Source: a virus
IMG/VR virus record: IMGVR_UViG_3300044712_001570
Span: 1 to 64,000 of that record
Length of the DNA: 64,000 nt
Direction: 5' to 3' (one strand)
The position numbers and the translations under genes were made by a program. Shown here one piece after another: positions 22,160-44,743 of this stretch. A model generated the notes under the pieces. The model worked only from the letters and a program-made list of their open reading frames with translations. It did not search any database and was not told where the DNA came from. Position 1 is the first letter of the stretch; the number at the start of each line of letters is the position of its first letter.

Positions 22160-22432
22160 CTACCTCCTAGCCCTTGCGAGGGCAGAACGAACGTTATTAA
22201 TAAAGCCAATCATGTCAGTATGATTAGCTTTCGATGTTATAATCCTTGGCTCGTGCTGGTCTACAAGTAGACCAATAGCATTAAGGCAAGTACGAAGCAC
22301 TCGCACTTCCGCCTTGAGCTTTGCGTTTTCAAGCCTAGTGTTAGCGCATATAGCGTTTAGGCATAACTCATTCATTGTTTTGGTTACCCTTTGCCCTATA
22401 GGCATATTAGGTACAGACGATGGTGTAGTCAT
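22160..22432 (-). CDS. Hypothetical protein
   Basis: AGGGG RBS; coiled-coil segment. Confidence 0.6.
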   Translation of the reverse strand: MTTPSSVPNMPIGQRVTKTMNELCLNAICANTRLENAKLKAEVRVLRTCLNAIGLLVDQHEPRIITSKANHTDMIGFINNVRSALARARR

Positions 22433-22455
22433 GGTTCCCCCTTGGTTGATTATTT

Positions 22456-22496
22456 AAAGAGCTGCTAGGGGGATTCGAACCCCCTAGAACCCCTTC
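22456..22496 (-). other. Long hairpin capped by a tRNA T-loop
   Basis: CTAGGGGG-TTCGAAT-CCCCCTAG; no D-arm or anticodon arm. Confidence 0.6.
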
Positions 22497-22620: not shown

Positions 22621-23238
22621 TTATTTATTACTCATATGTTCGTCATCATACTGGGCTTGCGCCCATACTTTTTCAGCGAACTCATTTATCCTATTTATAA
22701 TAAGTAGGTCACCATTATCATCGTCGGTGCCATTATCGGCATCAAGGTACTCTATTAGGGATTCTATATTTTTATGATTCCCACCGTGTCTACACTCGCG
22801 TACAAGCTGCCCGACTATACCGTTATAATAGTCGGCAGCTTCCCATATCCTAACGTCTCCTGACATGCCTTGTATCATTGAAGCTATCAAACCCATAAGC
22901 TCCTGCCCATCCTCGGTAAGGGTACCTATAAGATTAGTTTGATGATTATACTCTGAGGAATATTCCTCTAATGCTTTTTCAAATCTGGGCTTTACCTCCT
23001 CCTCAATCCAGGATGTAACGCTTTCCTTTTGCATATTAGGTAATGTAAACGCATGGCTACGGCCATGGTATAAGTCAAAAGAGGATCCCTGACCCTTTAG
23101 TTCTGTATCGACTAATATAGTTTTTTTCTCGAAGTCGAGAGTCATAGTGGGGCGCCAGCAAGCGCCATGAGGGGAGTTATCTACACCTATGGTATCCTTG
23201 ATTGTGACTTCGATTGTAGTCATTAGTATCTCCTCCAT
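22621..23238 (-). CDS. Hypothetical acidic protein
   Basis: GGAGG RBS suggests start at 23223. Confidence 0.75.
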   Translation of the reverse strand: MEEILMTTIEVTIKDTIGVDNSPHGACWRPTMTLDFEKKTILVDTELKGQGSSFDLYHGRSHAFTLPNMQKESVTSWIEEEVKPRFEKALEEYSSEYNHQTNLIGTLTEDGQELMGLIASMIQGMSGDVRIWEAADYYNGIVGQLVRECRHGGNHKNIESLIEYLDADNGTDDDNGDLLIINRINEFAEKVWAQAQYDDEHMSNK

Positions 23239-23902: not shown

Positions 23903-24097
23903 ATGAACGCAACCCCTGACCAGATAAGCAATATAACCCTCACTAACTGTAAACTTATTGCTACTTTTAAATATGTAGAGCAAAACCTTATTAGACTAGA
24001 TTATAATAATATAACCCTTCACCTTACTAAAGAAGAAGCTATAGGCCAAAAAGCCTACATGATCGCCATGGGCTGGAAGGTTTCTAATCGCGCATAA
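23903..24097 (+). CDS. Hypothetical protein, first gene of rightward unit
   Basis: Near-leaderless ATG after promoter. Confidence 0.6.
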   Translation: MNATPDQISNITLTNCKLIATFKYVEQNLIRLDYNNITLHLTKEEAIGQKAYMIAMGWKVSNRA

Positions 24098-24135
24098 TGG
24101 TTGTTATCTGGTGGGTTCGATTCCCACCATGCGCC
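24090..24135 (+). other. tRNA minihelix-like structure
   Basis: GCGCAT/ATGCGC stem stacked on GGTGGG-TTCGATT-CCCACC T-arm, 14-nt linker in place of D and anticodon arms. Confidence 0.6.
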
Positions 24136-24175
24136 CTGTCGCAGTTTTTAGCGACTATTAAAGGAGAATCATATC

Positions 24176-24922
24176 ATGGCACGAAAGTCAAAAGCACCTA
24201 CACAAGAACAAATTAATGCAGTCCTTGCAGAAGAAGGTCTAATGCTTGCTCGTAAGGACGAGCAGGGGGCTTTCCAAACAGAAGTCCTAGGCACCGTGTA
24301 TTGGGTCAAAAGTGATATATCAAAGGAAGATGAGGATGGTATTGAGGATGAAGATGTAGATGGGGAAGAAGAAGATGAAGTGGAAGTGGAAGCTCCCCCA
24401 CCAGTTGTCCCTATTGCAGCACCCGCTCCTACTTCTACTTCCAATAAGAATGCATACACTAAGGACTTTCTAAAGCGTAAAGCGAAAGTTCTTAAGGACC
24501 TAGGGTACTTCCATGGCTGGTGTCCGGGAGTATATGTCTCATATGCTAAGCGTCTTAGAGACGATATGAATCTAGTATCAGGTTCCCACCAGACAGACGT
24601 AGGGAAAAAACTGGCTGGAGATCTGTTAGCAGCTGTAAAGGCTATTGATACCGCTATTGAAACAATGCGATCGTTACCAGCAGGTTGGAAGCCAGAAAAG
24701 ACTGAGCAAGCTAAAAAGTCCAGTGGCCCCTCTGCTTTACAAGTAGGGGATAGGGTAGCCCTCACAGATAAGGCTCGCAAGAGTGGGGGATATGATGGCT
24801 TGCTGACAGATTGTAATGAGACATTCAGAGTTCTCCTTGCAACGTCATCTATTACCCGCGTTCAAAGCGAGCACGATGGGGTGTTGACACTACCACGAAA
24901 GGACCTTGAACTAGCTAAGTAG
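24176..24922 (+). CDS. Hypothetical protein with acidic linker and C-terminal SH3/KOW-like domain
   Basis: AAGGAG RBS; LQVGDRVAL...LPRKDLE. Confidence 0.75.
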   Translation: MARKSKAPTQEQINAVLAEEGLMLARKDEQGAFQTEVLGTVYWVKSDISKEDEDGIEDEDVDGEEEDEVEVEAPPPVVPIAAPAPTSTSNKNAYTKDFLKRKAKVLKDLGYFHGWCPGVYVSYAKRLRDDMNLVSGSHQTDVGKKLAGDLLAAVKAIDTAIETMRSLPAGWKPEKTEQAKKSSGPSALQVGDRVALTDKARKSGGYDGLLTDCNETFRVLLATSSITRVQSEHDGVLTLPRKDLELAK

Positions 24923-32168: not shown

Positions 32169-33407
32169 ATGTATACTACTCAACTATCACGTAGTAAGGC
32201 GAAGCCACATTCGCTTAGTGCTAAAGAGCTGGAGAGACGTATAGGCTCTACTACCTATATGGTATGGCAGGGTATATATGATGCTCGCAACGTATGGACT
32301 GGCACTACTCTTATATCTCGTGATGAACTAGCTACCGAGTTAGGTATATCCCCTCATACTGTTAAAGACTGTTTATCCCGTTTACATAAGCTGCAACTCG
32401 TTAGGACTGTAGGTCGCATGCAGGGCGGGAGAGTATGGCGACATATAGTTGGTTCCATATGGCATGGTCAGCTATGCCTACCTGTCAAGGTCTATGATGC
32501 ACTCATGCTCAACAAGGGTCGTGGAGGGTTCCGTGCGAACGCCGGACGACCAAGAAAAGATGGAAATCCACCTATGCGAAGAAGCTCTTCCCTACCCCCT
32601 CAAGATAGCTCTGCATTGATAATCAAAACACCCCCGTGTTTTAAGATCTTAAATATTAAAGATCTTAAGATCTCTGTTTCTCTTTCTGAAGAAAGAGAAA
32701 GGCAAGCTGGTGCTTGCGTCGATTCTAAAACTTTAGTCGGGAGGGATATAGCTCAACGCTTACCGGGTGTACCGAAGTTCATAAGCGTTAGTACTCTCTC
32801 GAATGTATATACACCCGATCCGCCAAGGCTAGACCCTAAAGCACACCCGCATGTTCATACCCGACTGATAGTGAAGTGGATTGAGGGTTGCTATAAAGCA
32901 TACCTAGGTAAGCGCTGTTGGATGTTTATATCCGAGAAGAAACCACTCGAACAGTCTAAGCGGTTTCCGCTATTGTTAGATGCAGCTAAAGCTTTTATTG
33001 AGAATGATATATCACCCGCGCTTTGGTTTGCATGGTCATTCAACTTCTGGAATCAGAATAAGACTAAGAAGGCTATGCCACCACTTGCATGGTTATTATC
33101 TCCTAAGCGTATGGCAGAACGTAGTGGATGGTTTCATTCAGAAGCTGCATTCACTATGGGATGCCGTATGCAGTACAATGATACTGAGCGCAAGTTCATG
33201 CTATTGCAGCATCGTATGATTACTGAACTTTCTTTATTAACCGTTGAGGAGTGTACTGATTACAAGGTGCAATCTATTGTTCATAAATACTTTCCGAAAG
33301 GGTTATATGACAACATTGTTCAAGAGATAAAGTCGGATGCTATTATGAGACAGATGGAACTCAGTGATGCAGTTGCAAGAGGAGAATGGTTATGGGGAGC
33401 CCTATAG
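32169..33407 (+). CDS. Putative replication initiator (N-terminal wHTH, AT-hook-like GRGG..AGRPRK, internal ori-like element)
   Basis: HTH SRDELATELGISPHTVKDCLSRL; directly upstream of DnaB and primase; palindromic repeats mid-gene as in lambda O-type initiators. Confidence 0.65.
   Translation: MYTTQLSRSKAKPHSLSAKELERRIGSTTYMVWQGIYDARNVWTGTTLISRDELATELGISPHTVKDCLSRLHKLQLVRTVGRMQGGRVWRHIVGSIWHGQLCLPVKVYDALMLNKGRGGFRANAGRPRKDGNPPMRRSSSLPPQDSSALIIKTPPCFKILNIKDLKISVSLSEERERQAGACVDSKTLVGRDIAQRLPGVPKFISVSTLSNVYTPDPPRLDPKAHPHVHTRLIVKWIEGCYKAYLGKRCWMFISEKKPLEQSKRFPLLLDAAKAFIENDISPALWFAWSFNFWNQNKTKKAMPPLAWLLSPKRMAERSGWFHSEAAFTMGCRMQYNDTERKFMLLQHRMITELSLLTVEECTDYKVQSIVHKYFPKGLYDNIVQEIKSDAIMRQMELSDAVARGEWLWGAL
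32582..32702 (+). repeat. Ori-like element copy 2
   Basis: AAAACAC-CCCC-GTGTTTT palindrome, three AGATCT, TTTCTCTTTC/GAAAGAGAAA inverted repeat. Confidence 0.9.
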
Positions 33408-36611: not shown

Positions 36612-39179
36612 ATGCGAACTATTCCTCTCTACCCTAGCAAACCCAAGCTTGCAGTCTGCGATAACTATCCAGCCTTTAGGTGCAACAAAGATTGTGCTAA
36701 CTGCGATTTATCTACAGGTACAACGAATGTATGTTCTCCTCCGGAAGGGGATGCAGGTGGTTTGCTAGTGGTGGGAGGATTCCCATCGATTGAGGATTCA
36801 AGAGCAGGTCGACCGTTTACGAATGCTAATGGTCGACTTGTTAGGACTGCAATAACCAAACACTGGAAAGGTAGGGTGGCATTAGATAATGCTATCAAGT
36901 GTCCTCCACCTAGGAAGGATGGAAAGGTAAAGATCAAGCCCACTTATATAACCTGTTGCAGGCCTTATCTATATTCTACCTTTCAAGATGTTAAACCTAC
37001 GAGGGTTATCGTGTTAGGTAATGATGCAGCAAAGAGTGTAGTTGGTAGGGGAGTACCATCCATAACAGTTCGAAAAGGTTATACATGGTCATTCGAATAT
37101 GGATGCCCTGTATTCTTTGTTATGGACCCAGCATTCGCTATGCATAATGACAGCTACAGGGAGTGGTTCGAGGAGGATATGCAACATGCCTTGACCTGGG
37201 CACCACCACCACCTGTATGGGATGCACGTGCTGGCTTAGTGGAATCGGAGCAGGATGCCAAAGAAGCACTCGAGGTTCTAGCGACAGCAGATTGGGTATC
37301 GTTCGACGTAGAAGCTGCTGGACTAATGTTCAACGCTAGCTATCGGCTATTGAGTGCAAGCTTTACTGCAAAGGTTGATAATAACCTTGAGACATTCGTC
37401 TGGACTAGCAGAGGACTTAATACCGCATTCAATGCGTATAAAAAGATTCTAGAAAGTAGTATACCTAAAGTAGGAGCTAACATTAGGTACGATGGGTTAG
37501 CAAACCAAGTACTATATGGTATACATCTTAATAACATTATTAGTGATGTTAGGTTGGAAGCTAAGCTACTTGATGCAGAGTGTAGTGGTAAGCTCGAAGC
37601 TTTAGCAGAACGAGTAGGAATGGGAGGCTGTAAAGAAGAACAAGAAGCTGCAATGCTAGCAGGTGTAAATAAAGTAAACGCTATACTTCGTTCTGTTAGA
37701 ACTAAAGGCGCTAATGAGTTTAACTTAGGTTTACTTAGAGCCCAAGGTATAGATGATAAGCTTTATCCAGTAGTAAATGGACCTTATGATTATGAAGCCG
37801 AAAGATGGTCATATGCAGTAGTAGAAAAGAATCAACTGTATTCCTATAATGCGAGGGATACCTTAGCTACTGCTTTGGTAAAGGATTCAATCCAACCTCA
37901 GATGGAAGCTAATGAAGCTCTTAGTACTGTATGGAATGATATAGTACTACCAGCTAATGAAGCTTTCCAATGGGTTGAGTACTGGGGCTTTGGTGTATCT
38001 ATACCTGATATCATGGCCTTTAGCGCTTCACTGGACAATGATATAGCACAGGCGGAAGAAAAGCTTAATGAGATTGCTAATCGTATAGGCTGCCGTAATG
38101 TGAACTGGAGGAGTGCAGCACAGGTAGGGCCTATACTATTCGATAAGCTTAAGTTACCTGTTATTGAATATACCAATGATAATGAAGATACGTATGCTAC
38201 AGGTGGTGATGTATTAGAAGCGTTAGTAGGTAAGCACGCTATTATAGAGCATCTATTAGCCTTTCGTAAGGCAGATAAGCTTCAATACTTTGGTTCTGGT
38301 ATGCTACCTCATGTCAGAGAGGATAGTAGGATACATACAAGCATCTTATTGGATGGTGCCCGTAGTGGCCGTTCCTCTTCTATTAAGCCAAACCTTCAAA
38401 ATATTCCTAAGATTGCAAGGAAGTACTTCGTAGCCTCCCCAGGTAATCTATTAGTACAGCTTGACTATAAGCAACTCGAACTAGTCATAGCCGCTATGGT
38501 TTCTGGTGACCCTGAGATGTGTCGAATCTTTAGGGAGGGGATAGACTTCCATAGGTTTACTGCAAACGTTGTTAGTCAGCTTATGTGGGGTATTCCACCA
38601 GAAGCCGTAACAGGAGACCATCGAAGTAAGGTCAAGCCAGTAGTATTCGGTAAGTTATACGGCAAGACAGATGAAACCCTAGCTAAAGACCTTGGGTGTT
38701 CTGTTGCAACGGCTAGAAAGGTTATAGGTAGTATATTCGATAAGTTCAGTATCCTTAACCGATGGTGCAAGGACATTCAAAGGGAGGCTACACGAACAGG
38801 GGTTACTCATACCTATTGGAATAAAAAGAAAGCTCGTATGAGGTGCTTGCCACATATAACAAGCAATATGAAGGGGTTAAGGATAACAGCGGAGAACGGT
38901 AGCTATAATACTCCTATTCAAGGTACTGCTAACGACTTCCTATTAGTAAGCCTTGTACAGATAATAAGACGCATATTGCAGGATAAACTACCTGCTAGGG
39001 TATGCATAACGGTGCATGACTCTATAGTGATGGAGGTGGAGCAGTCGCAAGCTTATGATGTAGCTCGCATGGCTAAGAAGATTATGGAATCACAACCAAG
39101 TGCAGGAGCAGATGTCCCTTTGACAGCAGAAGTTGAGATAGGTCAAAGCTGGGGTCAACTAGTAAAGGTAAACCTATAA
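36612..39179 (+). CDS. polA: Family A DNA polymerase with N-terminal family-4 uracil-DNA-glycosylase-like domain and 3'-5' exonuclease
   Basis: CANC/NAIKC/TCC Fe-S Cys pattern and GRPF; exonuclease FDVE and YNARD; PNLQNIP, DYKQLE, K.VVFGKLYG, NTPIQG, VHDS. Confidence 0.93.
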   Translation: MRTIPLYPSKPKLAVCDNYPAFRCNKDCANCDLSTGTTNVCSPPEGDAGGLLVVGGFPSIEDSRAGRPFTNANGRLVRTAITKHWKGRVALDNAIKCPPPRKDGKVKIKPTYITCCRPYLYSTFQDVKPTRVIVLGNDAAKSVVGRGVPSITVRKGYTWSFEYGCPVFFVMDPAFAMHNDSYREWFEEDMQHALTWAPPPPVWDARAGLVESEQDAKEALEVLATADWVSFDVEAAGLMFNASYRLLSASFTAKVDNNLETFVWTSRGLNTAFNAYKKILESSIPKVGANIRYDGLANQVLYGIHLNNIISDVRLEAKLLDAECSGKLEALAERVGMGGCKEEQEAAMLAGVNKVNAILRSVRTKGANEFNLGLLRAQGIDDKLYPVVNGPYDYEAERWSYAVVEKNQLYSYNARDTLATALVKDSIQPQMEANEALSTVWNDIVLPANEAFQWVEYWGFGVSIPDIMAFSASLDNDIAQAEEKLNEIANRIGCRNVNWRSAAQVGPILFDKLKLPVIEYTNDNEDTYATGGDVLEALVGKHAIIEHLLAFRKADKLQYFGSGMLPHVREDSRIHTSILLDGARSGRSSSIKPNLQNIPKIARKYFVASPGNLLVQLDYKQLELVIAAMVSGDPEMCRIFREGIDFHRFTANVVSQLMWGIPPEAVTGDHRSKVKPVVFGKLYGKTDETLAKDLGCSVATARKVIGSIFDKFSILNRWCKDIQREATRTGVTHTYWNKKKARMRCLPHITSNMKGLRITAENGSYNTPIQGTANDFLLVSLVQIIRRILQDKLPARVCITVHDSIVMEVEQSQAYDVARMAKKIMESQPSAGADVPLTAEVEIGQSWGQLVKVNL

Positions 39180-39448
39180 TGTATAAGATATGCATCCTAT
39201 TATTAGTATTACAAGCATGTGGAGGTAATGTATCCCATGAATGCTTGCAGTTAGGTAACCCTCATGGCTTAGCAGAAGGTTGTCAAGCTAGGGCTTGGGT
39301 TATTGATGAAAACCTTCCTGCCCCATCATGTATCGAAGTAAAGGGGCAATCTCTACTTGTAGAGCGAATGGATAATGCTCCTTTATATACTGGTACTTGT
39401 TCCCTTTGGTCCTATCCACAATCAATAGTAGTTGAGGTTAAACCATGA
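39179..39448 (+). CDS. Small putative lipoprotein
   Basis: MYKICILLLVLQAC lipobox. Confidence 0.55.
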   Translation: MYKICILLLVLQACGGNVSHECLQLGNPHGLAEGCQARAWVIDENLPAPSCIEVKGQSLLVERMDNAPLYTGTCSLWSYPQSIVVEVKP

Positions 39449-39891
39449 ATCATATCGAAGAAGTAGTCACAGTAAAGGAAGCAACCTCTATTGATAATAA
39501 CCAACTAAACGAAGAGTTTATACGTTTACCATCCGATCTATCCTACTTCTCTAACCTATATGCAGAAGCATGTGATGCATCTGCAAGGGCTAAGCTTTTG
39601 AAGGAGATGGCAGAAGCAGCTGTAGTACAAGAGCTACGTAGTACTAATGATAAGATAAATGTGGATATGGTTAAAGCTCTTGTTACTTTAGATGAAACAG
39701 TAGAAGCAAGTCGGCGCAATCTTATAACAGCAGAAACAAATGAAGTTCGATTGAAAGGAGTATGTGACGCTATACGAGCTAAGAAGGATATGTTAGTCTC
39801 TATTGGTGCAAACATTAGAGCGGAGTCTGAAGGTAGTCCACTAATAAGACAACAATCCCGTGCAATGCGGGAGAGTGAATCGGATAGGTAG
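39445..39891 (+). CDS. UvsY-like helical recombination mediator candidate
   Basis: IDNNQLNEEF..LP..Y...KKDML.S.GA..R; located next to gp32-like SSB. Confidence 0.5.
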   Translation: MNHIEEVVTVKEATSIDNNQLNEEFIRLPSDLSYFSNLYAEACDASARAKLLKEMAEAAVVQELRSTNDKINVDMVKALVTLDETVEASRRNLITAETNEVRLKGVCDAIRAKKDMLVSIGANIRAESEGSPLIRQQSRAMRESESDR

Positions 39892-39958
39892 CCCAATAGG
39901 TTAGGGTCCTCGGCTCATAACCGAGTTAGTGCGGGTTCGAGTCCCGCCCTATCCACCA
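39882..39958 (+). tRNA. tRNA with CAU anticodon (elongator Met or Ile2)
   Basis: Full cloverleaf: GGATAGG/CCTATCC, D stem GCCC/GGGT, CTCGG-CTCATAA-CCGAG, GCGGG-TTCGAGT-CCCGC, encoded ACCA. Confidence 0.92.
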
Positions 39959-39998: not shown

Positions 39999-40787
39999 AT
40001 GGCAAGTAATCTAGTTAAATGGGGTTCGTTTGATATTGGTGTTGCAGAGGAAGAACGCAAAGCTGTTGATGCAGAAACAGCCTCAACCAGTGTATACATT
40101 ACCCTAAAGGAGGGGGATACTACTGTTAGGTTTCTTCCACCTCCTGTTGGGGTACAGAATCCCTTTATGCGAACGCATAGACACTTTATCCGTCTAGCTA
40201 ACCTTGAGCATCCAGTGGTCTTTAACTGCCCCCGTATGCTAGCCAAACAACCCTGCCCCGTATGTGAGCAGGTAGATAAGCTAAAAGCTTCTGGTAATCG
40301 TGCGGATTACAAGAAGGCAGGTAGTTTCCTCCCTCGGTTATATATCTTTGCCAATGTCATTGATAGAGCCCAGGAAGAACGGGGGCCTCTTATTCTTCGG
40401 TTTGGAAAGACTATATTCGATCAACTCATGGAGATTCGTACTGACCTCAAGAAGGGTGGTGACTATACTAATCCAGAAGAGGAAGGGTTTGATATTATCA
40501 TTACTCGCAAGGGTAGTGGGATGCAGGATACCGAATACTCGGTATATCCATGCAAACGCAACTCCGAGCTAGGTGATCTATCTTGGATTGATAAGCAACA
40601 CAATCTAGTCAAGGAACGTGAAGTCCTTACCTATGACGAGATTGTGGATATGCTTAAGGGTGAAAATAATGACAATGAACGTTCATCTAATAGGCGTGAA
40701 GCTGCGGGTGGACGAGGAAGAGGAGGTGGTAGAGGACGAAGTGTTCAGGATGATGCACAAGATGCTGAAGTTTGGGATGCAGATTAA
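39999..40787 (+). CDS. Single-stranded DNA-binding protein (T4 gp32-like)
   Basis: VRFLPP, CPVCE, ANVID, GFDIIITRKG..TEY, acidic tail. Confidence 0.85.
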   Translation: MASNLVKWGSFDIGVAEEERKAVDAETASTSVYITLKEGDTTVRFLPPPVGVQNPFMRTHRHFIRLANLEHPVVFNCPRMLAKQPCPVCEQVDKLKASGNRADYKKAGSFLPRLYIFANVIDRAQEERGPLILRFGKTIFDQLMEIRTDLKKGGDYTNPEEEGFDIIITRKGSGMQDTEYSVYPCKRNSELGDLSWIDKQHNLVKEREVLTYDEIVDMLKGENNDNERSSNRREAAGGRGRGGGRGRSVQDDAQDAEVWDAD

Positions 40788-40841
40788 CTAGTTTTTTAGC
40801 CGTCTCCTCTGCTCGAGAGGAGACAATGGAAGGAATATAAC

Positions 40842-40955
40842 ATGTACAGAATGTTGAAAGCATTGCACGCTATAATGTATAAACCAACAATAAGTTGGTA
40901 TACCGTTATAGTGGTATGCGTAGTTCATGAGTTCATATCATTATATAAAACATAG
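40842..40955 (+). CDS. Small hydrophobic ORF (37 aa; not in track)
   Basis: GGAAGGA RBS; MYRMLKALHAIM... Confidence 0.35.
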   Translation: MYRMLKALHAIMYKPTISWYTVIVVCVVHEFISLYKT

Positions 40956-40981
40956 GTAGTTGGCCGGTGAGAGCCGGCTTA

Positions 40982-41104
40982 GGAGTGGCTTGGTGCACAG
41001 ATAGTTTGGCTAGCATGAACATGACATGGATTCCCCACACGCCCTTCCCCACCCGTGTGGCCTAGCTAAACATCTGATAGAGGGTTCGATTCCTTCTCAC
41101 TCCA
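40982..41104 (+). ncRNA. tRNA-capped structured ncRNA (acceptor stem and T-arm, no D-stem or anticodon arm)
   Basis: GGAGTGG/TCACTCC-A acceptor, GAGGG-TTCGATT-CCTTC T-arm, 15-bp helix CAGAT(A)GTTTGGCTAG/CTAGCTAAACATCTG, inner CCACACG/CGTGTGG hairpin with C-rich loop. Confidence 0.7.
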
Positions 41105-41116
41105 CGAGGTAAATAC

Positions 41117-41383
41117 ATGGGTAATCCACTCAAAAGATACGTAAAGGTTGAAGTCCTTGTTAGCGCATCTGGTAAGGGTAAGAAGTGCCACGAATCTTGC
41201 CCTTACCTAAACCGAATGATAGATGAGTTAGAAGGTACTCGTTCAAAGAGTTGTTTATTATTTGATTCACCTTTATCTATATCCGGTAATAATAGTGACA
41301 TTATGCGTTGTCCAGAATGTGTACAAGAAGCAGTAATAATAGATGTTAATAGATTAAAAACAGAATCAAAGGAAAAGCCATGA
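41117..41383 (+). CDS. Small Cys-rich protein
   Basis: C..SCPYL..CLLF..RCPEC; GAGG RBS. Confidence 0.7.
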   Translation: MGNPLKRYVKVEVLVSASGKGKKCHESCPYLNRMIDELEGTRSKSCLLFDSPLSISGNNSDIMRCPECVQEAVIIDVNRLKTESKEKP

Positions 41384-42513
41384 AGATTGCATTCTTTGGT
41401 GACGTTCACCTAGGCAACCATAAAAGGGCAGGAGGAGAGATACTTGCGGGGCTCAATGCAAGGTGCCTGCAAAGCCTTCGAGCCTTTAGGAAAGCTATAA
41501 CCCTATGTATTGACCAGGGTTGTAAGATAGCGGTTATTACAGGTGACCTATTCGATTATGATAGGCCAGAGGCTCAACTTATAACCAAGGTGCAAGAGAT
41601 ACTTGCTAGCATTCCACCTGACTTCGTTATCTATTGTATGGTAGGTAACCACGACCAAAGAAGCGAGCTTATAGGGGACCATGCACTTGGTCCTATAAGT
41701 GGGTTAGTACAGGTTATAGATCAACCCTATTCAACCTTGATCACAGTTGATACTGTTAATGGTAAACCATTTAATGCAGTATTAGATATTATACCTTTTA
41801 CATCTAAGCCTGCTATAGATGCTTTGCAGGAGTACCAAGTAGCAAGGAGTAAGTCTCCTTACCCTGCTAACCTCCCTAGGGTACTTGCAATGCACTTTGG
41901 TTTACAAACGAAAGATATAACACCACCTTGGCTATTAGATGCAAAGGATGGTGTTAATGTAGAACGAGTACTTCTACCAATGTGTCAGAAGTATAACATA
42001 GCAGCAGTCTTTGCTGGTCATTACCATTCAGGGGGTCAGCATACTATTCCTGATAGTTTACCTATAGCTACTCAATGTGGTGCTTTGGTACCAACCGGAT
42101 GGGACAACCCAGGTGCAGGCTATGGTAATGTATGGATACTGGATATACAAGGGGAAGGTATAGATGCAACTCTCCATAGAGTACCAGGTCCTAGGTTTCT
42201 ATCTGATATGGATGATGTTAGGTTATGTAATGAGGATGATAATATCTATCTATCAGTTATAGGTGAGAACCAAGATAGTATTCGAGATATGGTTAGTACT
42301 GGTAAACTAGCTTATGGTGAAGTTCTACCAGCGGTATCTAAGACTAAGCTACAGGATGGTCTTAATAAGACTAAAGGTCTTGTTACTATTGATATAGCCA
42401 TAAAAGACTTTATCGAACGATGGTATGGCGATACCACCACTCTTCCACCAGGAATAACCAAGGAAGCTATAACCAGTAGGGTACGTAAATACCTAGCAGG
42501 AGCACAGTCATGA
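41380..42513 (+). CDS. sbcD: SbcD/Mre11-like metallophosphoesterase nuclease
   Basis: GDVH, GDLFD, GNHD, GHYH. Confidence 0.9.
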   Translation: MKIAFFGDVHLGNHKRAGGEILAGLNARCLQSLRAFRKAITLCIDQGCKIAVITGDLFDYDRPEAQLITKVQEILASIPPDFVIYCMVGNHDQRSELIGDHALGPISGLVQVIDQPYSTLITVDTVNGKPFNAVLDIIPFTSKPAIDALQEYQVARSKSPYPANLPRVLAMHFGLQTKDITPPWLLDAKDGVNVERVLLPMCQKYNIAAVFAGHYHSGGQHTIPDSLPIATQCGALVPTGWDNPGAGYGNVWILDIQGEGIDATLHRVPGPRFLSDMDDVRLCNEDDNIYLSVIGENQDSIRDMVSTGKLAYGEVLPAVSKTKLQDGLNKTKGLVTIDIAIKDFIERWYGDTTTLPPGITKEAITSRVRKYLAGAQS

Positions 42514-44171
42514 TAACTGTATCGAAGGTGGTCATTGAGAAGTTTATGAATCATAAGAAGACCACTCTTACCTTTCCATCAACAGGTCTAATAGTAATAA
42601 CAGGGCCTAATGGAGCAGGAAAGAGTTCCTGCCTGGAAGCTATATCCTTTTGCTTATGGGGAAAGACCCTACGGGGTACAGACCCATGGCCTAGTGATGA
42701 TGGTGGAAGAATATTGGTACAGTTAGCTAATGGTATGTGGGTAGAGAGAAACCAGACTAAAAGCATTAAGGGTAGGGTGCTCTTTGCAGGAGGAAGAAAC
42801 GAAGACCCTATATCCTTTGCTACTATGACTAAGGCTCAAGAAACCCTTGATTCAAAGCTATGTAGTTTTGATTGCTGGAGTAAGTCCAGTATCTTTTCCT
42901 CTGCAGATGCAGCTACCTATTCCGATGCTACTGACATGGAGCGAAAGCTTCTCCTGGAGGGTATCATAGGTTTGGATGGTTGCTCCAATGCCCATGAGTT
43001 ATGTAAGGCAGACCTTAAGAGTACCAGGCCTCAACTCATGTCTGCCGATAGTAGGGTTGCATTGGTGCAATCTAAGATTGACCTAGCTAATCAACAAGTT
43101 AGGGCAGCAAGTACTAGATTAGAGGAATGTTCGAGAAGTGCACCACAATCTGCAACATTGGAAGCTACTAAGGCCAAACTTGCAAAGCAACAGGAATCTA
43201 TGCGCAAGTTAGAGCGACAGATTGAACATGACACTAACGTTCATTCAGAGATGCAAGCTAGGGTATACAAGGCTCAGTTTCTAGTTAAGAACACTAAAGC
43301 TTCTTTAGATGCAGCAACCAAACAACAGTGTGAAGCTTGTGGGCAAACCATAGTAACCGATAGTACTAAGATAAAGAACTTACAGGATGCACTTGCTGCT
43401 AGTACTTCAGAGCTTGAATCTCTTCTAGTATTAGAGCAGGAGATTAAAGGTGAGATACCCTATAACAAGGAGCTTCGTGCAGAACTAAAGGTATCGATCG
43501 ATAAGCTATTGGTTGATTACTATAAGCTTTCAGAGTTGGAAGCTGTTAGTTCAAGTGCGAAGGCAGAACACCAAGCTGCACTCGATAGGGCTAATATTCT
43601 TCTCTTAGAGAGTCAAGAGGCCTTAAAGATTGCTCAAGAGGATGTAGAGCGGGTAAAGGCAGAGATAGCCTTGATTGAGTGTGCGGAAAAGGTATTAGGG
43701 ATAAAGGGGGTACGAGCTACAATACTAAGCAATGCCCTGCCTGGTTTGGAGGAGGTAACCAATACATGGCTATCTCAGTTGAACCCAGGTGTAAGTGTTA
43801 GGCTAACTCCTACTGAGAAGAATGGAGTTATAGAGGCGGTACCATTAGATATTAATGGTGTTAATGGTAAAGGCTATAAGAGCACATCCGGCGGTGAAAG
43901 GAGAAGGTTAGATGTAGCCTTAGTGCTAGGGCTAGCAGAGATGGCTAGTGGTGTAACTATTAGGGATACCAATAGCACTCTATTCTTCGATGAGGTTGCA
44001 GACTCCCTAGACAAGGACGGTCTCATAGCAACTGCTCGAATATTCCATGCATTAGCTACTACAAGGTGCGTTGTATTGATAACCCACAGGGAAGAGTTAT
44101 TGGACCAGTTGCAACCTAAAGAGCACTGGAAAGTTATGAACGGCTCTGTAACAGTTGAAAGGAAGTGGTAA
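42510..44171 (+). CDS. sbcC: SbcC/Rad50-like ATPase
   Basis: GPNGAGKS, coiled coil, zinc hook CEACGQ, SGGE, FFDE, ITH. Confidence 0.92.
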   Translation: MITVSKVVIEKFMNHKKTTLTFPSTGLIVITGPNGAGKSSCLEAISFCLWGKTLRGTDPWPSDDGGRILVQLANGMWVERNQTKSIKGRVLFAGGRNEDPISFATMTKAQETLDSKLCSFDCWSKSSIFSSADAATYSDATDMERKLLLEGIIGLDGCSNAHELCKADLKSTRPQLMSADSRVALVQSKIDLANQQVRAASTRLEECSRSAPQSATLEATKAKLAKQQESMRKLERQIEHDTNVHSEMQARVYKAQFLVKNTKASLDAATKQQCEACGQTIVTDSTKIKNLQDALAASTSELESLLVLEQEIKGEIPYNKELRAELKVSIDKLLVDYYKLSELEAVSSSAKAEHQAALDRANILLLESQEALKIAQEDVERVKAEIALIECAEKVLGIKGVRATILSNALPGLEEVTNTWLSQLNPGVSVRLTPTEKNGVIEAVPLDINGVNGKGYKSTSGGERRRLDVALVLGLAEMASGVTIRDTNSTLFFDEVADSLDKDGLIATARIFHALATTRCVVLITHREELLDQLQPKEHWKVMNGSVTVERKW

Positions 44172-44743
44172 CCATGTTATCCGATATTTTATTGTATGTA
44201 GTTGTATTTGGATTAATTATTGTTGCGTATATATCAGGGAGGAGCTGTGTACGCCCTATAAAGGATGGTTTTGATAAAAGCCATCTATATCAACACGCCA
44301 AAGCTGAACTAAAAGACTATAGTATTGAGTCTAATAACGAGGTGCTTGAGCTTTTGAGGGTATTTTATAACCAAGGCCATTCTGGTTGTTCTGCGTCATT
44401 TGTAACGGAACAGTTTTATAAACTCGCAAAATTCCAGCCGTTGCGCCCATTAACTGGTGAAGATAGTGAATGGATTGATGTAACTCCTGACCATTTTCAA
44501 AATAATCGATGCAGTGGTGTGTTTAAAAATAAAAAGACAGGCATTGCGTACTTTTTAGATGGTAGGGTGTTCAAAGATAAAACAGGAGCATCCTATACTT
44601 GCTCTGCATCGAAAACCCCAATTACATTCCCATGTTATCCAAAAACTGAGTATATGGATCGCGAGGCAACAGAAGAGGAAAGAATCGAAGGTTGTAAGCT
44701 ATAAACACCCTAGTTAGTCATAGCTATTGAAAGGAAGTGGTAA
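44155..44743 (+). repeat. 17-nt direct repeat flanking gene 44174-44704
   Basis: TTGAAAGGAAGTGGTAA at 44155-44171 and 44727-44743. Confidence 0.85.
44174..44704 (+). CDS. Conserved phage hypothetical protein with N-terminal TM helix
   Basis: QGHSGCSA...PLTGEDSEW...QNNRCSGVFK pattern. Confidence 0.75.
   Translation: MLSDILLYVVVFGLIIVAYISGRSCVRPIKDGFDKSHLYQHAKAELKDYSIESNNEVLELLRVFYNQGHSGCSASFVTEQFYKLAKFQPLRPLTGEDSEWIDVTPDHFQNNRCSGVFKNKKTGIAYFLDGRVFKDKTGASYTCSASKTPITFPCYPKTEYMDREATEEERIEGCKL

Follow-up and report, generated by a model that had tools for sequence, protein, structure and literature searches.

What does a tRNA-shaped RNA do between two protein genes of a phage, if it has no decoding arm? 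An element of this kind, 123 nt long (40982-41104, + strand), was found in an uncultured soil phage with a GC content of 43%, where it sits in the replication/recombination module between the SSB gene and the recombination-nuclease genes. The window, i.e. the whole stretch of DNA analysed here, covers the initial 64 kb of a virus record in IMG/VR, which is 88 kb long and estimated to be 77% complete. An initial annotation had described the element as a non-coding RNA with the layout of the tRNA-like domain of tmRNA, carrying a C-rich hairpin.

Genomic context of the element

The element lies between the stop codon of the SSB gene (40787) and the next ATG (41117). The features of this region are:

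36612-39179, PolA fused to a UDG-like domain
between PolA and tRNA-Met, two small ORFs
39445-39891, ORF whose last codons and stop overlap the 5' end of the tRNA-Met gene
39882-39958, + strand, genuine tRNA-Met(CAU) whose CCA is encoded, on the far side of the SSB gene from the element
39999-40787, gp32-like SSB
40962-40979, + strand, GNRA (GAGA) tetraloop hairpin, 18 nt
40982-41104, + strand, complete tRNA-shaped element of 123 nt, bounded by the presumed RNase P site G40982 and the discriminator A41104
41106-41119, + strand, Shine-Dalgarno sequence GAGG (41106-41109) and ATG (41117) of a Cys-rich ORF
41117-41383, 88-aa Cys-rich ORF
41380-42513, SbcD-like gene
42510-44171, SbcC-like gene
44165-44704, Tad3 homolog

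The GAGA-tetraloop hairpin, which the initial annotation had already noticed just upstream, was found at 40962-40979. It has 7 bp including two G-U pairs (-12.3 kcal/mol, z = -2.6), and its 3' end is 2 nt ahead of G40982. On the other side, the Shine-Dalgarno sequence of the next ORF starts 2 nt past the discriminator A41104 and its ATG 13 nt past it. The tRNA-Met gene is the only tRNA in the record and lies about 1 kb upstream of the element, with the SSB gene in between. In the stretch from the SSB stop to the element, neither a sigma-70-like promoter nor an intrinsic terminator is predicted, which is consistent with co-transcription with the SSB gene. The runs listed as holding the element sequence are two rhizosphere metagenome runs, both possibly the source sample, with no RNA run among them, and no sequence variants of the element were found in the contigs of these two runs.

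A tRNA-like frame without D arm and anticodon

The predicted parts of the element are:

40982-40988, + strand, acceptor 5' strand GGAGTGG, in which position 3 is A with partner U70
40989-40997, + strand, 9-nt linker replacing the D arm, CTTGGTGCA (RNA letters CUUGGUGCA)
40998-41076, + strand, long helix (5 bp, bulged A41003, 10 bp) and 48-nt three-way-junction insert
41014-41028, + strand, hairpin A, 4-bp CAUG/CAUG stem and 7-nt loop AACAUGA, pair probability 0.91-0.92
41035-41060, + strand, hairpin B, 7-bp stem and 12-nt C-rich loop CCCUUCCCCACC, pair probability 0.94-0.99
41080-41096, + strand, T-arm GAGGG / UUCGAUU / CCUUC
41097-41104, + strand, acceptor 3' strand UCACUCC and discriminator A, with CGA next and CCA not encoded

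The acceptor strand GGAGTGG pairs with TCACTCC (41097-41103) through six Watson-Crick pairs and a terminal G7-U66. All helices of the element have a pair probability of at least 0.91, except for this seventh acceptor pair (0.01), so that of the canonical 7-bp acceptor stem described initially, six pairs are firm and the seventh is ambiguous. The thermodynamic model favours a 6-bp acceptor stem with a 6-bp T-stem, and the coaxial stack is 12 bp in both variants. The other parts were read correctly from the start: the discriminator A41104 is followed by CGA and not by an encoded CCA, and the T-arm is canonical, with a TTCGATT loop, the conserved G53-C61 and one G-U pair. Likewise, the 9-nt TTGG-containing loop, the 15-bp helix and the domain of about 48 nt with its 7-bp hairpin are all present as described, and the tRNA-like frame lacking both a D-arm hairpin and an anticodon is genuine.

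The middle of the molecule departs from a tRNA. The strands of the long helix (40998-41013 and 41062-41076, with one G-U pair in the 10-bp part) close the 48-nt domain 41014-41061, and its outer 5 bp, CAGAU/AUCUG, occupy the place of the anticodon stem. An insert of 69 nt takes the place of the anticodon loop, and a three-way junction tops the 15-bp helix. No D-stem can form in the element; in its place stands the UUGG-containing 9-nt linker, whose GG could dock on the T-loop. Position -1 is A, and C stands at position 8, where U8 is near-universal in tRNAs.

The minimum free energy of the whole element is -44.9 kcal/mol (z = -3.4), and only 1 of 200 shuffles folds equally well; for the inner 91 nt, 994 of 1000 shuffles fold less well. 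The fold is unchanged when it is predicted in flanking contexts of 230-340 nt. The T-loop 11-mer GGTTCGAWTCC occurs in 3 copies in the window and in none of 100 shuffles. The tRNA-like frame is thus statistically and thermodynamically solid, and the structure is confirmed as real.

With the T-arm given, about 4% of shuffles contain a 7-nt acceptor partner at the right place by chance. Phage attP cores often copy the segment from the T-arm to the 3' end of host tRNA or tmRNA genes, and the element might be read as the remnant of such an attachment site, used for integration and paired in its acceptor by chance. We consider this reading very improbable, since the 88-kb record contains no tyrosine integrase, the element is located within a replication/recombination module, and its exact 23-nt 3' end has no match in 185,579 prokaryotic species genomes. 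Moreover, an att core would not be expected to contain a nested 15-bp helix or to have this overall fold.

The element is neither a tRNA nor a tmRNA

With default parameters, ARAGORN gives the tRNA-Met as its sole call, and Rfam at gathering thresholds agrees. In a permissive Rfam scan (E<=10) of 40700-41400, no tRNA, tmRNA, mt-tmRNA or Y-RNA match was obtained; the tmRNA-type models covered at this threshold were the bacterial, alpha, beta, cyano, permuted and mitochondrial ones. In the Rfam and ARAGORN checks proposed in the initial annotation, no standard detector recognised the element, and no intron-containing tRNA was called at default settings.

The element has the acceptor stem and the T-arm with T-loop of a canonical tRNA (RF00005). 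As the D-arm and the 5-bp anticodon stem with 7-nt loop are absent, and neither an RF00005 match at E<=10 nor a default ARAGORN call was obtained, this identity was rejected. An intron-bearing tRNA was rejected as well, ARAGORN with the -i option being negative at default thresholds. With relaxed thresholds, a tRNA-His(gtg) with a 41-nt intron was proposed at the element. This candidate has a D-stem of one Watson-Crick pair, a 14-nt unpaired variable region, no G-1 and, with A73, the wrong discriminator. We regard the call as noise, because at other places in the genome identical settings yield six calls, with introns of 549-2878 nt, that are obviously spurious. An insert of 41 nt is also far below the size of a group I intron.

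In outline, the element does resemble tmRNA. The tRNA-like domain of tmRNA (RF00023 and relatives, including the tRNA-domain-only form of jakobid mt-tmRNA) has the same order of parts as the element, i.e. acceptor, unpaired GG-containing loop, long helix and T-arm, and both share the A discriminator and a 3' strand ending in CUCCA. However, position 3:70 of the element is A-U and not G-U, although A73 is present, and the absence of G3-U70 noted initially is thus borne out. The G3-U70 wobble is the identity element for alanine and is required for alanylation. ARAGORN in tmRNA mode (-m) gave no call even with a 70% threshold (-ps70). As a positive control, RF00023 scores 64.5 bits end-to-end on a tRNA-domain-only relic of 77-80 nt from a Phycisphaerales genome (L189); the same model picks up this relic but not the element. 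No pseudoknots fit, with no pseudoknot-forming sequence around the frame 41015-41062, and no smpB is found in the 88-kb record. Identity with tmRNA is rejected, and of the tmRNA-domain layout claimed before, the similarity in outline stands, while any closer tie is unsupported.

A minimal tmRNA would still have to be weighed, in which the 16-codon frame 41015-41062 (MNMTWIPHTPFPTRVA, stop TAG at 41063-41065) is read as a tag on stalled ribosomes. The outline of the tRNA-like domain, the CUCCA 3' strand with A discriminator, which is like that of tmRNA and tRNA-Ala, and an insert filled by an open frame would suit it. In addition to the A3-U70 pair, the missing model matches, the missing pseudoknots and the missing smpB, the frame is mostly locked in helices with pair probability >0.9, and 16 open codons are expected by chance in about 46% of cases ((61/64)^16). 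The tag would end in RVA instead of the usual (L/V)AA, and the element lacks a credible tag in this respect. We therefore hold a minimal tmRNA to be highly unlikely.

Other tRNA shapes at gene junctions of the same phage

Two simpler structures with a T-loop were found in the window:

24090-24136, + strand, element B, in which a 5-bp acceptor-like stem and a 7-bp T-arm form a 12-bp stack, with a UGG-containing linker of 14 nt
22450-22496, - strand, element A, 16-bp hairpin with T-loop cap (GGUUCGAAUCC)

Element B is located between the ORFs 23903-24097 and 24176-24922, its 5' strand overlapping the stop codon of the former. Element A is located between the ORFs 22621-23238 and 22160-22432. Together with the tRNA-Met, which overlaps the stop of its upstream ORF, all three further tRNA shapes of this phage are intercistronic.

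Comparison with known tRNA-like RNAs

Stable tRNA-like RNAs of phages have been known since the 1970s (T4 species 1 and 2, T5 RNAs) and, to our knowledge, are still without an assigned function. They constitute a descriptive kind and not a sequence family, and the element has the properties of this kind: a length of 100-150 nt, an acceptor/T-arm frame and no decoding arm.

The closest parallel is species 1 RNA of T4 (rnaC, 139 nt, NC_000866 70908-71046), while rnaD is a looser one. Like the element, rnaC is phage-encoded and falls within 120-140 nt, its T-arm is canonical (CCGGG-UUCGAAU-CCCGG), and its ends are paired beside the T-arm. Its predicted fold also consists of long helices, with the D-arm hairpin absent and no anticodon. 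In contrast, rnaC ends a cluster of eight tRNAs, whereas the element is solitary among protein genes, with one tRNA at a distance of about 1 kb, and the sequence similarity between the two is restricted to the T-loop. The T4 RNA accumulates as a stable RNA. Rfam contains no model for rnaC or rnaD.

In T5, RNA1 (144 nt, AY543070 30501-30644) and RNA2 (125 nt, 32959-33083) are annotated as 'tRNA-like stable RNA with unknown functions'. They share with the element the acceptor stem, the T-arm and an enlarged middle that replaces the normal anticodon arm. Unlike the element, which has the 9-nt linker and lies outside a tRNA cluster, they retain a D-arm hairpin and are located in the tRNA region. 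With rnaC and the two T5 RNAs of the same general build, the earlier statement that the element belongs to no described class was too strong. It is a solitary, D-armless variant of the long-known phage tRNA-like RNAs; a literature search found no description of such an element.

A second comparison concerns its position. In tRNA punctuation, known from mitochondrial tRNAs, the t-elements of plant mitochondria and MALAT1/mascRNA, cuts by RNase P and RNase Z define the ends of mRNAs. In these systems, a non-decoding tRNA shape stands between or after messages, with a protective structure just 5' of the RNase P site. The element shares this arrangement, being a tRNA-like acceptor/T-arm structure at a message junction. 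However, these systems are eukaryotic or organellar and their cleavage was demonstrated experimentally, whereas we infer the cleavages of the element; and a punctuation signal has no need of an insert, whereas the element carries one of 69 nt.

YrlA-type Y RNAs of bacteria and phages were also considered, which are non-coding RNAs of about 120 nt that mimic the tRNA elbow and are present in some phages (Chen et al. 2014, PMC4201824). Their topology is inverted: the ends of a YrlA RNA form the Ro-binding stem and its acceptor-like stem is closed, whereas the ends of the element form the acceptor stem. A Y RNA was rejected, given that the 88-kb record contains no Ro60/TROVE gene and no Rfam match was found.

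Search for relatives

BLASTN search of 40700-41400 against 50,697 phage records found no homolog, and no close relative emerged from IMG/VR scans that used SSB, SbcD and PolA as protein queries. The best cultured-phage matches have 25-32% protein identity and are mainly Bacillus SPO1-like phages. Searches with an SSB profile retrieved 35 loci, of which 18 are from IMG/VR (25-31% identity) and 17 are JGI metagenome loci. None of the 18 IMG/VR loci has a tRNA or T-loop near the SSB gene. In the nine nearest JGI metagenome loci (SSB 35-53% identical, GC 56-69%), PolA, a small ORF, SSB and the next gene are tightly packed with gaps of 12-60 nt, and there is no tRNA, no T-loop and no room for such an RNA past the SSB gene. 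The closest SSB (P0002, 49% identical) is encoded on a 138-kb Logan contig, outside the 35 loci whose SSB flanks were inspected. Since both are absent from the nearest inspected relatives, the tRNA-Met and the element are lineage-specific additions bracketing the SSB gene.

Pattern scans of IMG/VR gave a similar picture. A pattern of D-linker and T-loop had at least 118 matches, mostly chance pairings of adjacent tRNAs in arrays, with no relative among them. The exact 22-nt 3' end had no match, and a 16-nt pattern of the C-rich loop had 3 chance matches in coding DNA, so conservation of the loop was not found. In the same 185,579 prokaryotic species genomes as above, a looser pattern (T-loop plus CACTCCA) had 41 matches, consisting of tRNA-Ala, tRNA-Tyr, tmRNA ends, odd tRNA-like genes and coding DNA, with no clear homolog. 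In the collections searched, the phage is effectively a singleton.

Among these 41 matches, the tRNA-Tyr(GUA) of two Sandaracinaceae genomes is identical to the last 20 nt of the element (T-loop to discriminator), with one base different in the 5' strand. This identity hints at a possible class II tRNA ancestry, although the matches had been picked by that same 3'-end pattern. Sandaracinaceae as the host are disfavoured by the phage GC of 43%. A 46.5-kb contig in the same rhizosphere samples also carries a tRNA in which 22 of 24 bases match.

These observations bring in the reading that the element is a decaying tRNA gene or relic, possibly class II and tRNA-Tyr-like, which lost its D arm, had its anticodon loop swapped for an insert and now serves no function under selection, even if it still happens to be cut by RNase P. 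The tRNA-Tyr identity, the 22/24 match on the contig from the same samples, the singleton status and the absence from the nearest relatives all fit such decay. Against it, the insert does not look like junk: a near-perfect 15-bp helix and two hairpins have pair probabilities >0.9, and together they beat 994 of 1000 shuffles. The GNRA hairpin and the abutting Shine-Dalgarno sequence also look organised, and the two T-loop minihelices at other junctions favour use over decay. On balance, we think a relic unlikely.

A proposed processing module at the SSB/nuclease junction

Our preferred reading, to which we give a probability of about one half, is that the element is a non-decoding processing module of the RNase P type where the SSB gene meets the nuclease operon, and that it is co-transcribed with the genes on either side. 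Bacterial RNase P recognises the stack of acceptor and T-stem together with the T-loop elbow. In the element, the 12-bp acceptor/T-arm stack and the T-loop elbow would make the transcript a substrate for the tRNA-end enzymes of the host. Cleavage by RNase P at 40981/40982 would leave an SSB message whose 3' end is capped by the GNRA hairpin. A 3' tRNA-end nuclease of the RNase Z or RNase E type may then cut past A41104, and the message of the nuclease operon would begin just 5' of its Shine-Dalgarno sequence. With the tRNA-Met on the other side of the SSB gene, the two tRNA shapes could excise a separate SSB mRNA by 'tRNA punctuation', and the freed 123-nt RNA may then last as a stable small RNA like T4 rnaC or T5 RNA1/RNA2.

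A processing signal is the simplest reading of what RNase P recognises and of the tRNA shapes at gene junctions, the GNRA hairpin and the abutting Shine-Dalgarno sequence. It is further supported by the lack of a D-arm, of a usable anticodon and of any tRNA or tmRNA call, by the bracketing of the SSB gene with two lineage-specific additions, and by the precedents T4 rnaC and T5 RNA1/RNA2. The missing encoded CCA, the A at position -1 and the C in place of U8 make the efficiency of processing uncertain. Several points count against a processing module. A bare minihelix, as in elements A and B, would suffice, and punctuation alone leaves the 69-nt insert unexplained. The element is outside a tRNA cluster, unlike the T4 and T5 RNAs. 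Finally, a homolog was not found, and an element of a single lineage could be a decaying tRNA remnant.

Possible roles of the insert

A cutting signal has no need of a 69-nt insert. From the stability of the insert, it seems that the RNA, once excised, may survive and have an action of its own. In its full form, this idea makes the element a trans-acting small RNA, in which the tRNA frame provides maturation (RNase P, CCA addition) and stability while the insert is the effector: the C-rich loop might meet G-rich RNA, or the insert might occupy a host protein that reads the tRNA elbow, such as a defence nuclease, SmpB or EF-Tu. The architecture shared with the stable RNAs of T4 and T5 and the display of a 12-nt loop on a stable 7-bp stem speak for such a role. 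Other long tRNA-framed elements in phage loci (L040, L059, L073, L105, L118 and L194) point the same way. A descriptor scan of 1.3 Mb of phage loci found several such elements, all with a D-arm. L194, a phage-like contig of a Halomonas bin, contains a 127-nt element with the same GGAGTGG acceptor, which barely passes the Rfam tRNA model (30.6 bits).

The initial annotation had proposed that the loop acts as an antisense to G-rich sequences, and this was not borne out for the phage's own genome: the best + strand duplex of the C-rich loop there has -25.2 kcal/mol, compared with -22.6 to -25.8 kcal/mol in shuffled genomes, i.e. its targets are no better than in shuffled genomes. The 88-kb record also contains no SmpB, Ro60/TROVE or CCA-adding enzyme, and the pattern scans did not find the loop sequence conserved. 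Thus, a trans-acting RNA appears rather improbable to us.

A broader and quite speculative version would combine the tRNA shapes of this phage. The D-armless tRNA frame would serve as a carrier, giving maturation and stability to an exchangeable effector, here the three-way junction with the C-rich loop, which would act in trans on a host RNA or on an elbow-reading host protein, while bare T-loop minihelices would punctuate the early and replication messages.

Significance

The element is a clean case outside a tRNA cluster, in which a non-decoding tRNA shape stands exactly at a gene junction, preceded by a protective hairpin and followed by a ribosome-binding site, with simpler minihelices at two more junctions of the same phage. 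If RNase P cuts there, this would be a bacteriophage form of tRNA punctuation, setting the stoichiometry of replication proteins such as SSB, and it would provide a testable role for at least some of the phage tRNA-like stable RNAs. If the frame does turn out to be a carrier of exchangeable effectors, the element would belong to a phage-wide 'tRNA-shape toolkit' and would not be a one-off relic.

TRNA-like genes in other genomes

Among the loci examined from other genomes, a contig of a Halomonas sp. MAG (PWIZ01000068.1) contains a tandem pair of tRNA-like elements (L194:1940-2213), neither of which is called by ARAGORN. One of them is 127 nt long, has a large insert in the middle of the sequence and scores 30.6 bits with the Rfam tRNA model. 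Its acceptor is GGAGTGG/CCACTCC followed by A, and GGAGTGG is shared with the 123-nt tRNA-shaped element of the phage (40982-41104). The contig is phage-like, encoding an ATP-dependent DNA ligase and a PHA02142 OB-fold domain protein.

A 77-80-nt gene in a Phycisphaerales MAG (JAJDDC010000086.1; L189:5899-5978) corresponds to the tRNA-like domain of tmRNA and nothing else. The GGUUUUGAC loop is present, as are a short helix and GGAC with a T-arm, and the gene matches Rfam tmRNA (RF00023) end to end at 64.5 bits, with the entire mRNA-like part absent.

A conserved tRNA-like gene of 81 nt is found in tRNA arrays of Nostocales and other cyanobacteria, represented here by nine loci (L162-L166, L171, L176, L180 and L186; for example, L163:6134-6214). 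This gene has an alanine-type acceptor (G3-U70 and A73), a D-stem of 3 bp and a loop of about 15 nt in the position of the anticodon loop. ARAGORN calls it in none of the nine loci, and in L163, the only locus scanned against Rfam, the gene has no match at the gathering score.

tRNA array in the rhizosphere samples

The two rhizosphere metagenome runs in which the phage DNA occurs also contain a 46,512-nt contig with a tRNA array of another organism or phage. One tRNA on this contig is identical to 41080-41103 of the phage at 22 of 24 bases, and a second has an exact 18-base match to the T-arm of the phage tRNA-Met.

T-loop minihelices and neighbouring genes of the phage

Two T-loop minihelices with the motif GGTTCGAWTCC lie between genes in divergent early operons:

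22450-22496, - strand, minihelix A
24090-24136, + strand, minihelix B

Minihelix A is a 16-bp hairpin capped by the T-loop, ahead of ORF 22160-22432. Minihelix B, in which the stack is 5+7 bp and the linker contains UGG, shares sequence with the stop codon of ORF 23903-24097.

Directly 3' of SbcCD-like genes, a 179-aa protein (44165-44704, +) matches the Pfam family Tad3, a type I Thoeris inhibitor (E = 3.7e-30). The DNA polymerase A (36612-39179, +) contains a UDG-superfamily domain at its N-terminus (residues 50-187) as well as a 3'-5' exonuclease domain.

The product of ORF 39445-39891 belongs to PHROG families of unknown function, and the final codons and TAG stop of this ORF (39882-39891) are overlapped by the 5' strand of tRNA-Met. 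RNase P cleavage at tRNA-Met is therefore predicted to deprive the ORF message of its stop codon.
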